Shown one piece after another: positions 31,298-35,397 of a stretch of DNA of 64,000 nt (the first letter of the stretch is position 1; each line of letters begins with the position of its first letter). The position numbers were made by a program, and so were the translations under genes. Origin of the DNA: Limisphaerales bacterium (GTDB lineage Bacteria > Verrucomicrobiota > Verrucomicrobiia > Limisphaerales > JAYTXL01). The notes under the pieces were generated by a model. It saw nothing but the letters and a program-made list of their open reading frames with translations. It did no database searches and had not been told where the DNA came from. The stretch is taken from the NCBI GenBank assembly GCA_046593035.1, contig JBKJSC010000201.1, forward strand, positions 2,273 to 66,272. The letters run 5' to 3'.

Positions 31298-31449
31298 GCG
31301 CGCCATCCTCATCAGAAGTGGAATGGGTGTCAACTTTAGAGATTGCGGAAAAATTATTTTACCCGTGCAAAGAACGGTGGGACTACCTTTGTCCGTGATT
31401 TTGGCTTTCAACTTTTTAATGGGCCGGGTGTTTGCCATACTGCGTGCCG

Positions 31450-32025
31450 ATGGAACTGACTGACGCGGAGATCATCGCCGCGGTGTTGCAGGGGGACACC
31501 GCGCGCTTTGAACTGCTCGTGACCAAATACCAATCGCGCATCTTCGCCACCGCCCGCCGTTATGCGCGGCGCGACAGCGAGGTGGAGGACATCGTGCAGG
31601 AGGTGTTCATCAAGGCGTTTCAGAAGCTGGGCAGCTACCGGGCGGAAGCGCCGTTCGAGCACTGGCTCATGCGCCTGGCGGTGCGGACTTGCTACGATTT
31701 CTTGCGCGTCCACCAGCGGAACCGCGAGCACACCTTCACGGAGATCACCGACCAGGAGTCCGACTGGCTGGAGCGGTTTGTCGCCGAGCCAAAGGACGGA
31801 AGTGAGGCGGCCAATGCGGCCCGCGCGCTGGTGGAGCGGGTGTTGGAGCAGCTCCCGCCCCCGGCCCGGCTCATCATCACACTGCTGGAAATCGAAGAGC
31901 GTTCGGTGAAGGAAATCGCGCAACTGACCGGTTGGTCGGTGCCGCTGGTGAAAGTCCGCGCGTTCCGGGCGCGGGCGGCGATGAAAAAATGTTTGGAAAA
32001 AATGACGAAGGAAAAGTACCTGTAA
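31450..32025 (+). CDS. ECF sigma-70 factor
   Basis: EDIVQEVFIKAF, WLMRLAVRTCYD, SVKEIAQLTGWS and VKVRAFRAR. Confidence 0.93.
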   Translation: MELTDAEIIAAVLQGDTARFELLVTKYQSRIFATARRYARRDSEVEDIVQEVFIKAFQKLGSYRAEAPFEHWLMRLAVRTCYDFLRVHQRNREHTFTEITDQESDWLERFVAEPKDGSEAANAARALVERVLEQLPPPARLIITLLEIEERSVKEIAQLTGWSVPLVKVRAFRARAAMKKCLEKMTKEKYL

Positions 32026-32063
32026 CCAAGCGGTGCGCCACCGCGTCTGGCGGGATGAGATTT

Positions 32064-32369
32064 ATGAAAATCCCTGAGTTGCAGTCCAAAATAATCGCCG
32101 CCGCCCGCGCCCTGCCGTCAAGCGACCGGGTGCCGTATGCCTTTGAGAAACGGATCATGGCGCACCTGGCCGCGCTGCCGAAACCGGACGGCTGGTCGCT
32201 GTGGGGTCACGCCCTGTGGCGTGCCGCCGCGCCCTGCGTGGCGGTGATGCTACTGCTCGGCGTGTGGACTTTCTACGCCGACAATCTGGGAGGAACCAAC
32301 CGCCCGCTGGCCCACGATTTTGAGGACATCGTGCTCGCCGGGGACGATAATCTGGAAGAAAATCTGTGA
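32064..32369 (+). CDS. Putative single-pass membrane anti-sigma factor
   Basis: Follows the ECF gene; VPYAFEKRIMA plus one hydrophobic helix. Confidence 0.6.
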   Translation: MKIPELQSKIIAAARALPSSDRVPYAFEKRIMAHLAALPKPDGWSLWGHALWRAAAPCVAVMLLLGVWTFYADNLGGTNRPLAHDFEDIVLAGDDNLEENL

Positions 32370-32866
32370 GGTTTTGGAAAGTCATTCTGGCGACGTTGGT
32401 GATTTTTGGCGCGGGGGTCATTACCGGTGCCTTGGTGGGCAACCTGCTTTATCCGGAGGAAGCCCGCCCGCTTTCGGTCAAAGCGTCCGCCACCACCGCG
32501 CCGCCGCTCCAGATCCAGCGCAAGGAATTTTTCCAGCGGATGAAACGCGAGTTGAAGCTCCGCGCGGAACAGCAGCAGCACATCGAGCAGATCATCCACG
32601 AAAGCCAGCAGCGGACGCAGCCGCTGTGGGACCAGGTTGCTCCCCAGATGCGGGATGAACTGCGCGGGACGAAGGAGAAAATCCGCGGCGAACTGGACCC
32701 GGCACAGCAAGCGAAATTTGACGAACTGTTCAAGCCGCGCAATCCACGCAAGCCCGAGGAACTGCGCAAAATCGAAGATCGCCGCGAACGCGCGCCCCTG
32801 CGCGGGAAGTTGGACAAAAATCCGACCAAGGGTTCGCCGTCGGGCACGCCGCCCGAAAATCCGTAA
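32366..32866 (+). CDS. Membrane-anchored helical periplasmic protein (Spy/CpxP-like)
   Basis: N-terminal anchor IFGAGVITG; ELKLRAEQQ...ELDPAQQAKFDE repeats; GTGA overlap with the previous gene. Confidence 0.65.
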   Translation: MRFWKVILATLVIFGAGVITGALVGNLLYPEEARPLSVKASATTAPPLQIQRKEFFQRMKRELKLRAEQQQHIEQIIHESQQRTQPLWDQVAPQMRDELRGTKEKIRGELDPAQQAKFDELFKPRNPRKPEELRKIEDRRERAPLRGKLDKNPTKGSPSGTPPENP

Positions 32867-32948: not shown

Positions 32949-33192
32949 ATGAGCGGATTAAACAGAACTATGGCCGCTCGGCACCAGCGAAGCGTTCTCC
33001 CTCACCCTCTCCCGCTGGGAGAGGGAACAGCCGTTGGAAGTTTTCTTGAAATTCGCGCGCAACCGCCCAGCAGTCAGCGCCAGATTTGCCCAAGCGCGGC
33101 GAGCGTTTCTCCCTCTCCCAGCGGGAGAGGGCCGGGGAGAGGGAGAACGTCGCCACCTGCATAACGGCCACATTTTTATTGAAACCGCTCAT
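32949..33192. mobile_element. Composite miniature element: outer 14-bp inverted repeats enclosing a CCCTCTCCC/GGGAGAGGG REP doublet
   Basis: atgagcggattaaa / ttgaaaccgctcat (12 of 14 match); inner palindromes span 32993-33149. Confidence 0.8.
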
Positions 33193-33443
33193 TCCCTCGT
33201 AATGCCGAAGGTCTTCTCGAATTCGTCGGAGAACTGGCGGATTTGATTCGAAATCTTTTGCGGGGCCGCAGCGAGCGTGGTGAGCATGCGCGGCGTTGTT
33301 TCGGGTTTGCACCGGATCAACTCGGCCGCGCCCACCACGAGGGAGAGCTGGTTGTTCACGTCATGCCGCAGTTCGGAAAGCTTTTGGTTCAACGTCAAGA
33401 CTTGCGCGGCGGTCAAAGTCACGGATTCAGCGGGCAAAGACAT
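33189..33443 (-). CDS. Stand-alone HisKA-like (DHp) small protein
   Basis: 84 aa; LRHDVNNQLSLVVGAAELI resembles an H-box; no ATPase domain. Confidence 0.65.
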   Translation of the reverse strand: MSLPAESVTLTAAQVLTLNQKLSELRHDVNNQLSLVVGAAELIRCKPETTPRMLTTLAAAPQKISNQIRQFSDEFEKTFGITRE

Positions 33444-33583
33444 GCGGGATTGTTGGCCGTGAAACCGGGGAATAGCAAGCCGGTTTCACCAGCGGTCCCA
33501 GAATAAAAGGCGATCAAGTCAGGAGGAGGATGGTATTGGCACCAAGGTGGTTTTACGCTCTCCCGTCGCTCCGTTGACCAAAG

Positions 33584-33871
33584 CTATCTTTGTTTGGCCA
33601 TGTGGTCATTGAATCGCTTCCGTGCCAAACTATACCTGATAATTGAGATCACAAAACCAGCCAAAATAAGAGCAACGCTCGGTAAAATGGTGTAAAGAGC
33701 CATGATGGCGAAGGGTACGAAGAAGTTCGTTTGATATTCGGTCCATCCCCTTTTGTCCAGCAGCATGAAGGCGAGCAACGGGCCACAGCCCACAGCAAAG
33801 ATGACAACTCCAATCCAGAAGAGTTTGGAGAATCGAAATCTTGGTGGTTGTTCGTTACTTGCTTCGTTCAT
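33584..33871 (-). CDS. Small two-helix membrane protein, copy 1
   Basis: 95 aa MNEASNEQPP...HMAKQR; paralogue of 33921-34208. Confidence 0.75.
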   Translation of the reverse strand: MNEASNEQPPRFRFSKLFWIGVVIFAVGCGPLLAFMLLDKRGWTEYQTNFFVPFAIMALYTILPSVALILAGFVISIIRYSLARKRFNDHMAKQR

Positions 33872-33920
33872 GATTAGAGGCAAGGCCATTTACGCTCCCC
33901 CGTCGCTCCGTTGGCCAAAG

Positions 33921-34208
33921 CTATCTTTGTTTGGCCATGTGGTGATTGAATCGCTTCCGTGCCAAACTATACCTGATAATTGAGATCACAAAACCAGCCA
34001 AAATAAAAGCAACGCTCGGTAAAAAGGTGAACATAGCCAGGAGGAGGAAGACGACTGGATTAGGGTTTGGATCTTTGGTCAATCCCAAGGTGGCCAGCAG
34101 ACCGGTGGCGAGCAACGGGCCACAGCCCACAGCAAAGATGACAACTCCAATCCAGAAGAGTTTGGAGAATCGAAATCTTGGTGGTTGTTCGTTACTTGCT
34201 TCGTTCAT
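33921..34208 (-). CDS. Small two-helix membrane protein, copy 2
   Basis: 95 aa; same termini as copy 1, different central segment (TKDPNPNPV). Confidence 0.75.
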   Translation of the reverse strand: MNEASNEQPPRFRFSKLFWIGVVIFAVGCGPLLATGLLATLGLTKDPNPNPVVFLLLAMFTFLPSVAFILAGFVISIIRYSLARKRFNHHMAKQR

Positions 34209-34227
34209 GATTAGTCCTTTGGTCCAG

Positions 34228-34380
34228 TCACCATAGTTTTTGGTGTAGGCGACAGGCCGCGTCATGAATCTCGCCGCCGAAGGCGACGTTGCGCCAAGCC
34301 AGCGCGACCACCAGGGCGATGGTGAATCGGGGAAATGGGGAGTGGCGAAGACGGTTAATGTGAGGGTGAATATTATTCAT
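34228..34380 (-). pseudogene. Truncated paralogue of the ankyrin gene (leader and first helix only)
   Basis: Translates MNNIHPH...LVVALAWRNVAFGGEIHDAACRLHQKLW*, versus LVALAWTNLAYCGEIHDAA in 34431-35303. Confidence 0.7.
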
Positions 34381-34430
34381 GGTCGCTCCGATTGGCTGAG
34401 TGCGAAAAGCATCGCTTGGTTTCGTGCAGT

Positions 34431-35303
34431 CTATTCGTGGCCGCCATGCTGGCGCAGCAATTCCGCTATGTCCTTGCGGCCAAATGCCACCGCGTGCTGC
34501 AAAGGCGTCAGGCCGTCGTTGGTCTTGGCGTTGACATCGGCTTTGTTGGCCAGCAGCAATTCCGCAAAGTCCTTGCGGCCTTCGGCAGCCGCAGCGTGCA
34601 AAGGCGTCCTGCCGTCGTTGGTCTTAGCGTTGACATCGGCTTTGTCGGCCAGCAGCAATGCCGCAAAGTCCTTGTGGCCTTTAAACGCCGCCGAGTGCAA
34701 AGGCGTCGCGCCGCTGTTGTCCTTGGCATTGACATTGGCCTTGTTGGCCAGCAGCAATACCACCACGGCCTTTTGGCCATAATTCGCCGCCCAGTGCAAA
34801 GGCGTGCTGCCGTCGTTGGTCTTGGCATTGACCTCGGCTTTGTTGGCCAGCAGCAATTCAGCCACGTCCTTGCGGCCAAGCATAGCCGCGAAGTGCAAAG
34901 GCGTGCTGCCGTCGTTGGTGGTCTTGGCATTGACATCGGCCTTGTTGGCCAGCAGCAATGCCGCCACTTCCTTGCGGCCATTCTCCGCCGCATAGTGCAA
35001 AGGTGCCCGGCCGAAAATGGCCTTGGCATTGACCTCGGCTTTGCTAGCCAGCAGCAATACCGCCACGTCCTTGTGGCCATTCTCCGCCGCATAGTGCAAA
35101 GGCGTTAGGTCGTCGGTGCCTTTGCTGGAAATCAAATCTGGATTGGCTTTCAGCAGGGCCTTGACCTTTTGCAAGTCGCCACTCTTGGCCGCGTCATGAA
35201 TCTCCCCGCAGTAGGCGAGGTTGGTCCAAGCCAGCGCGACCAGCGTGACGGCAGCGAGGCGTGGAATGAGGGAGAGAATGGGACGGCTAACGAACGGGTG
35301 CAT
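34431..35303 (-). CDS. Secreted ankyrin-repeat protein (cap + 7 repeats)
   Basis: Signal peptide; repeated TPLHxAAxxGxKDVAxLLLANKADVNAK in about 99-bp near-identical units. Confidence 0.93.
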   Translation of the reverse strand: MHPFVSRPILSLIPRLAAVTLVALAWTNLAYCGEIHDAAKSGDLQKVKALLKANPDLISSKGTDDLTPLHYAAENGHKDVAVLLLASKAEVNAKAIFGRAPLHYAAENGRKEVAALLLANKADVNAKTTNDGSTPLHFAAMLGRKDVAELLLANKAEVNAKTNDGSTPLHWAANYGQKAVVVLLLANKANVNAKDNSGATPLHSAAFKGHKDFAALLLADKADVNAKTNDGRTPLHAAAAEGRKDFAELLLANKADVNAKTNDGLTPLQHAVAFGRKDIAELLRQHGGHE

Positions 35304-35397
35304 GCCCTTCTGTTTGCTCCGATTGACGCGCTGAGTCAAGCCGCAACGAACGCCGAATGGGGCAGGGGCAGGCTCTTTCGGTGTGTGAGCGTTGGGC

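Follow-up and report, generated by a model that had tools for sequence, protein, structure and literature searches.

Near-identical flanks and a divergent core in tandem small membrane-protein genes of a Limisphaerales bacterium: probable homologous exchange between paralogues

Some small membrane proteins function in pairs after duplication or fusion, paired small multidrug-resistance genes being an example, and class II holins combine two transmembrane helices, cytoplasmic termini (N-in/C-in) and a basic C-terminal tail. Mosaic divergence of tandem paralogues under interlocus gene conversion has been modelled and documented in Arabidopsis halleri, whose HMA4 gene is present in three tandem copies (bioRxiv 10.1101/2025.10.29.685298), and concerted evolution in prokaryotes is treated in PMC6053082. 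We analysed a stretch of 64,000 nucleotides (the window) from the Limisphaerales bacterium assembly GCA_046593035.1 (contig JBKJSC010000201.1, positions 2,273 to 66,272, forward strand), which carries two tandem genes, A and B, for a two-helix membrane protein of 95 residues. The ends of the two genes are nearly identical and their central cores differ strongly. We consider it somewhat probable that homologous exchange between the tandem units homogenises the flanks, the cores being far older and too different to recombine.

This locus shares with the HMA4 mosaics the tandem copies, stretches that are closer between paralogues than to orthologues, sharp borders and, by path-averaged counts, synonymous divergence that varies from block to block. 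Unlike in those mosaics, the unit is tiny (337 bp), the island that escaped exchange is the conserved motif of the protein family, lost in one copy, and the conversion tracts are putative. The locus also resembles the variable proteins of diversity-generating retroelements (DGRs), with localised, mostly nonsynonymous differences between two ~84-nt repeats in one locus. Unlike in DGRs, there is no DGR-type reverse transcriptase and no adenine specificity, both repeats lie in full-length genes, and no within-sample variation was seen in the contigs of a metagenome run (X1, see below).

Both open reading frames (ORFs) have 95 codons and lie on the minus strand with a start-to-start distance of 337 bp; gene A is separated by 49 nt from gene B, which lies upstream, and the two are presumably co-transcribed. 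An earlier description made from the letters alone (the sequence-only reading) had reported this pair, and the sequence and ORFs bear out its spacing and peptides. The interval 33552-34214 is the extent of two tandem repeat units; the repeat reaches 32 nt beyond the stop codon and just 6 nt before the ATG. The features of the array are as follows.

33552..33877: tandem repeat unit 1, with 326 nt in common with unit 2
33889..34214: tandem repeat unit 2
33878-33888: spacer of 11 bp between the units
33848..33974: unit junction, spanned by one contig of run X1
33584..33871, minus strand: gene A, 95 codons; membrane hairpin of two helices, its divergent core being without the loop motif of the family
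ATG at 33889: possible alternative start of gene A, which may give 101 aa (also the gene call), with GGGGGAG five nt upstream
33921..34208, minus strand: gene B, 95 codons; AAAGGAC ahead of the ATG; canonical family member
33686..33769, minus strand: core of A, codons 35-62 (FMLLDKRGWTEYQTNFFVPFAIMALYTI); end of helix 1, loop and start of helix 2
34023..34106, minus strand: core of B, codons 35-62 (TGLLATLGLTKDPNPNPVVFLLLAMFTF)

The two coding sequences differ at 38 nt, which changes 22 residues. Codons 1-34 are identical at the DNA level, and codons 63-95 differ only at codon 68 (L/F) and codon 89 (D/H), in both cases at codon position 1. The remaining 36 differences all fall in codons 35-62, at codon positions 1, 2 and 3 in 14, 14 and 8 cases, and change 20 of the 28 residues, with a single purely synonymous codon change (codon 52, GTA/GTC). 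These counts exactly reproduce those of the sequence-only reading, including its frozen ends. Four core codons are hit three times and five are hit twice. Across the 326-nt unit, 36 of the 40 differences lie within 82 nt (33688-33769), and none of 100,000 random placements gathered at least 36 differences in an 84-nt span. Variants at the 3' end lie at 33561, 33577 and 33607 in unit 1 and at 33898, 33914 and 33944 in unit 2. Divergence between A and B is thus 0-3% in the flanks and 43% in the core, with sharp block borders; identity is perfect over 107 nt on one side of the core and ~97% on the other. This clustering supports the homogenised appearance of the flanks, as described before.

The cores are homologous in register, with 48 of 84 nt identical (57%) against a codon-shuffle mean of 23.9 (sd 4.2), a value of 48 being reached in 0 of 10,000 shuffles. 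A gapped alignment is scarcely better than the ungapped one, and the longest identical stretch within the core is 7 nt. In copy A the loop is radically replaced (11 of 13 residues at positions 39-51), and the changes in helix 2 are mostly hydrophobic for hydrophobic. Because its frame is open, its hydropathy profile is hairpin-like and its helix-2 changes are conservative, gene A looks functional still and not in random decay.

To compare the ages of core and flanks, we counted silent and replacement differences by the Nei-Gojobori method (NG86). The core showed a dN of 0.74 and a dS of 0.37, and dS was 0 in both flanks. Synonymous differences, which in multi-hit codons are averages over paths, amounted to 5.8 over 20 sites in the core and 0 over 45 in the flanks (Fisher p = 0.0005). 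Likewise, third positions differed in 8 of 28 core codons and in 0 of 67 flank codons (p = 3e-5). At neutral-like flank sites A and B differ at 2 of 83; in the absence of exchange, core evolution would need to be ~20-fold or more above the neutral rate. Third-position divergence between B and its orthologue in another metagenome-assembled genome (MAG) is 10/28 in the core and 14/34 and 12/30 in the flanks; the A-B value for the core (8/28) is therefore comparable with that between orthologues. Conversely, A and B differ at 0 of 102 nt in the N-terminal flank and 2 of 90 in the C-terminal flank, as compared with 24-25 of 102 and 28-36 of 90, respectively, to the family loci L016, L017, L010 and L011. 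Both coding differences in the flanks are nonsynonymous, and the derived state is in copy B each time (L68F and D89H, judged against homologues P0003 and P0007).

Both genes belong to a rare family that we define here by a length of ~90 residues, a helix 1 with GxGPLL, a loop with G-x-T-x-DPNPNP-(V/I)-G-x-G, a helix 2 with (W/Y/L)P(S/G) and a basic tail. The near-invariant loop motif of the family reads, more fully, G-(L/W)-T-x-D-P-N-P-N-P-(V/I)-G-x-G. Copy B, which retains GLTKDPNPNPV, fits all family features but the GxG that usually follows the motif; copy A has the expected features in both helices and in the tail and departs from the family in the loop motif. A word-indexed search of 5.8 billion clustered proteins recovered five relatives besides the two genes of the window, and phmmer against 1.84 billion representatives returned 33 proteins at E <= 0.001 (best E-values 1e-23), of which 31 were taken on and two long partial matches (P0031 and P0032) were excluded. 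Another six loci from metagenomes and four from MAGs (two from Verrucomicrobia, one from Pseudolabrys and one from Acidobacteriota) came from pattern scans, and members are scattered across MAGs of Verrucomicrobia, Acidobacteriota and Alphaproteobacteria. No member was found in 60 relatives of the organism (two genomes of the same genus, 78% and 87% complete, and 58 of the same order) or in 400 further genomes of the phylum. Most genomes with the family have a single gene; the window has a tandem pair, and in proteins P0008 and P0016 two hairpins are fused into one chain, with divergence of one or both loops there as well. The fusion in P0008 is real and no sequencing error, because its cluster has four members on at least six contigs.

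The loop motif was no part of the queries (copy A or the helix-1 pattern) with which the 47 family rows were collected, and motif counts among them are therefore not circular. DPxPNP is present in 38 of the 47 and exact DPNPNP in 35. Five of the nine rows without DPxPNP retain a recognisable part of the motif; it is wholly lost only in copy A and in P0008a, P0016a and P0016b, which are halves of the fused double-hairpin proteins. In an alignment of 38 sequences, eight of the 15 invariant or at least 90% conserved columns fall in the core (G42, D46, P47, P49, N50, P51, G55 and A58); B keeps seven of them, lacking G55, whereas only G42 and A58 remain in A. Divergence between orthologues is even over the length of the gene (L016 versus L017, 21/102, 18/84 and 19/90 nt in the three segments), which is the behaviour that the sequence-only reading had itself set against its proposal of a hypervariable, diversifying core; L017 and L010 differ by 4, 0 and 4 residues across the same segments. 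By these comparisons the core is the best-conserved part of the family and not a variable one, and the earlier proposal is not supported: B is canonical, and A is the single outlier in the genome. We also asked whether the core of A represents an old class to which the divergent half of P0008 belongs too, and rejected this possibility: BLASTP revealed no specific core likeness, and that half is no closer to A than to B.

The AlphaFold2 model of B (38 sequences, mean pLDDT 78) consists of a helix at residues 16-40, a loop at 41-51 and a second helix at 52-94. The part that differs between the copies had been assigned to the loop between the helices; it does include the loop, but in this model it also takes in the end of helix 1 and the start of helix 2. 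From the positive-inside rule and the basic N-terminus and tail, both termini are predicted to be cytoplasmic (N-in/C-in) and the loop of ~11 residues to be periplasmic. The model of the fused P0008 shows four helices with a pTM of 0.48 and is uninformative on hairpin packing. Searches of Pfam, NCBIfam, PADLOC and PHROGs produced no match above cut-off for the small genes, only sub-threshold chance matches, and Foldseek of the B model against the PDB yielded nothing at E <= 0.001. The ESM Atlas has no entry for copy B; with homologue P0009 as query, the nearest clusters there were annotated 'hypothetical protein', with no common Pfam family, and a text search of the literature did not find the string DPNPNP. 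Viral contigs contained no relative. The window and loci L016, L017, L018 and L019 have no gene neighbourhood in common; neighbours at family loci include ankyrin, ECF sigma, M16 peptidase, Kelch and ClpC genes, among others.

As with paired small multidrug-resistance genes, a short hairpin protein occurs as singleton, pair and fused form, and one half drifts from the consensus once duplicated. Unlike in that case, the family has no sequence or profile relation to a named family, both copies share the same predicted N-in/C-in topology, and pairing is here a suggestion. Class II holins are matched in size, in the two helices, in the basic tail and in the two possible starts, six codons apart in copy A; they differ in that our family has no PHROGs match and no relative on viral contigs, and neither the window nor L016-L019 has lysis or phage genes nearby.

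The assembly is a MAG of 4.5 Mb in 292 contigs (93% complete, 3.6% contamination). We examined the array further in soil metagenome run X1, which contains 90% of sampled words, is the only run with the locus and is probably its source sample, no RNA data set being listed for the locus; the X1 sequences are Logan contigs, a separate assembly that is not fully independent, given this probable origin. Contig depths were 10.8 and 10.7 for the unique flanks, 18.4 for the junction, 18.3 for core A, 13.8 for core B, and 32 and 26.6 for the shared segments. The summed depth of the cores is thus 3x and that of the junction 1.7x that of the flanks. The tandem junction is real. The depths suggest ~2.7-3 units per genome on average rather than two, with a non-integer A:B ratio near 1.3:1; the extra depth could stem from the collapse of a third unit, from differences in array size within the population, or from the two together, and the assembly probably collapses an array of three units.

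Under homologous exchange, which we favour, the locus would be a small inner-membrane gene of a rare family, repeated in a short tandem array. Copy A would be a paralogue with residue-by-residue replacement of its loop and the first part of helix 2, the register and the hairpin hydropathy being retained. Gene conversion or unequal crossing-over between units 337 bp apart would keep the flanks identical, and the cores would coalesce much further back in time than the flanks. Roughly 20-30 bp of identity are needed to start recombination. Since the longest identical run in the core (7 nt) is below this length, the cores would be too divergent to recombine and would escape exchange through divergence; selection for two loop types may also hold them apart. 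The core is taken to be older than the flanks because otherwise ~36 changes, with four triple-hit codons among them, would have been fixed in 84 bases against about two in the flanks. The suggested variation in array size fits such an exchange process.

Several observations weigh against this explanation. No A-like core was found in any other organism, among either the 5.8 billion clustered proteins or the 1.84 billion representatives, so that sequence searches offer no independent sign of an old A lineage. The family looks newly arrived in this lineage, with genes of 46-47% G+C in a genome of 59% and no member in congeners, which would leave little time for core divergence unless the pair arrived together. 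In addition, 11 mismatches follow one another inside the core (p = 0.002 under even scatter), which suggests at least one complex event and not point changes alone. When only strictly synonymous, same-residue codons are compared, the excess in the core is one of eight against none of 65 in the flanks (p = 0.11), a small count. The core dN/dS of ~2.0 (30.2 nonsynonymous versus 5.8 synonymous differences) does not differ significantly from neutrality (Fisher p = 0.21) and leaves room for positive selection as the chief driver; diversifying selection could still be at work on copy A. Finally, copy number comes from the contig depths of a single run, probably the source sample.

The strongest competitor, unlikely though still to be reckoned with, is a recent tandem duplication followed by an adaptive or relaxed burst of change in the loop and helix 2 start of A, with few changes in B; the flanks would then be identical because they are young, with no conversion. 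The core dN/dS and the 14/14/8 distribution of differences over codon positions would fit such a burst, as would the uniqueness of the A-type core among the homologues found, the apparently recent arrival of the family in the lineage, and the changes in B itself, which has also lost the GxG after the motif and carries both derived nonsynonymous flank differences. The burst must, however, account for ~36 fixations in 84 nt next to 2 of 83 neutral-like flank sites (an omega of at least 20 over the whole segment) and for four triple-hit and five double-hit codons. It also leaves the excess of third-position (p = 3e-5) and path-averaged synonymous (5e-4) differences in the core to be explained, and the elevation of dN/dS above 1 is not significant (p = 0.21). 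The sharp edges on both sides of the divergent block and the 11-mismatch run, which even divergence would seldom produce, would fit replacement of the A core in one step in an otherwise young pair, through recombination with a strongly diverged allele of another lineage or through a template-switch or error-prone repair patch; the low G+C and the patchy phyletic spread are compatible with horizontal traffic. We nevertheless consider such a replacement improbable, if still in contention: no donor was found in the assembly (blastn word size 7), neither protein collection holds an A-like core, the in-register identity of 57% makes the patch homologous and not foreign, and block inversion and compensated frameshift are excluded.

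Targeted diversification of the core, put forward in the sequence-only reading and considered here as DGR-like mutagenesis, silent-cassette exchange or shufflon-like inversion, draws on the clustering of differences and their nonsynonymous excess only, and is largely refuted. Differing sites are adenines in 13 of 36 cases with copy A as template and in 7 of 36 with copy B, so the changes are not adenine-specific. The sole reverse transcriptase of the 93%-complete assembly, on the 2.9-kb contig C143 (locus L022), carries RVT_1 and GIIM domains followed by an Intron_gpII RNA and is a group II intron maturase (intron at 715-2172, Rfam Intron_gpII match at 2098-2172). A DGR was rejected on both counts, in agreement with the earlier statement that the copies are not a simple template/variable pair; the reverse transcriptase envisaged elsewhere in the genome came down to this maturase. 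Further copies or a template of the cores had been envisaged as well, and none was found in the 4.5-Mb assembly (tblastn-type search; blastn word size 7). A shufflon-type inversion was discarded, as the reverse complement reaches at best 27 matches at any offset versus 48 in the direct register, and so was a compensated frameshift, since no other frame of B yields the A peptide. Core variation within the population was likewise not seen, each core being one clean 160-nt contig without variant letters in X1, a result that rests on contigs, which drop rare variants, and not on raw reads. With a core conserved family-wide, this mechanism is hardly credible, and no dedicated diversification machinery is involved. 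Equally hard to credit is an assembly artefact in which strain alleles of a single-copy gene were set in tandem. The MAG is fragmented and partly contaminated, and the identical flanks exceed common k-mer sizes, but one X1 contig crosses the junction (33848-33974) at 1.7x flank depth and holds the 11 junction-specific bases together with B-type 3' variants, and the two cores sum to 3x the flank depth, not to 1x.

Returning to homologous exchange, the full loss of the motif only in duplicated or fused forms leads us to propose that protomers assemble together. They may oligomerise, with A and B forming mixed assemblies that would present two different periplasmic faces; after duplication, one canonical loop per assembly might suffice and the other would be free to change. 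From the depths (~3 units on average, A:B near 1.3:1), the array might even act as a recombinational dosage and isoform switch. Unequal crossing-over in the identical flanks would keep changing the numbers of A and B units and so tune the mixed oligomer, positive selection would have reshaped the loop of A, which might for example serve as a receptor or an immunity determinant exposed at the surface, and P0008 and P0016 would have followed independently the same path of duplication and remodelling of one loop. We regard this last scenario as a long shot.

Three further features lie within or next to the array.

33551..33611: partial copy of a dispersed ~90-nt element, covering the last codons, stop codon and 3' flank of gene A
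33889-33933: second partial copy of the dispersed element, behind gene B
34228..34380, minus strand: ORF of 50 codons, immediately upstream of gene B; relic of an ankyrin-repeat gene (its 5' end, signal-peptide region)

The dispersed element has a 10-bp terminal inverted repeat (GATAGCTTTG ... CAAAGCTATC) and is present in the assembly in two full copies (C115:7560-7660 and C177:1475-1563, with 88% identity in an alignment of 90 positions) and in three partial copies, namely the two in the window (33551-33611 and 33889-33933) and C178:2334-2384. Both small genes take their final codons (KQR), their stop codon and their 3' flank from the partial copies in the window, and the close homologues P0003 and P0007 end right before this point. 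The copy behind B brings the GGGGGAG and the ATG at 33889, and may thereby provide a start for gene A.

An alignment of 151 positions between the DNA at 34255-34401 and 35187-35336, the start of an intact seven-repeat ankyrin gene (34431-35339), shows 71.5% identity; most of a second ankyrin paralogue has apparently given way to the small-gene array. The region 33498-34254 is low in G+C (the genes at 46-47%, the genome at 59%). Contigs of related organisms in runs X2-X4 cover only 33300-33497 and 34255-34336, at ~85-95% identity, and then continue with sequence unlike the window; the lack of array coverage in these runs is not itself taken as a result. The array may be a lineage-specific insertion; the matches at 34255-34336 could instead come from other ankyrin paralogues.

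Beside the array, at 31432-32866 (plus strand) and 33189-33443 (minus strand), lie genes for an ECF-type (extracytoplasmic function) sigma factor, a putative anti-sigma protein with no Pfam match, an LTXXQ-like periplasmic protein and an 84-residue protein with a weak, sub-threshold HisKA-like match. These neighbours may form an envelope-stress module, which is not conserved beside the family in other genomes. The LTXXQ-like gene and the small HisKA-like one flank a long imperfect inverted repeat at 32996-33140, rich in CTCCC/GGGAG, with 31-nt arms that are 90% complementary and 83 nt apart. An Rfam search of 33000-34700 returned only a sub-threshold miRNA-precursor match over this repeat (25 bits against a gathering score of 94), most likely by chance, and a promoter and terminator scan of 33100-34700 showed no excess over shuffles.

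Together, our results strike a candidate diversity-generating locus off the list and replace it with a pattern as produced by homologous exchange between very short tandem paralogues. The mechanism itself is most likely ordinary; what is new is a rare protein family, whose members are membrane proteins of ~90 residues with two helices and a nearly invariant DPNPNP loop. The confinement of motif loss to halves of duplicated or fused forms suggests that the protomers cooperate, and offers a lead to the function of the family.

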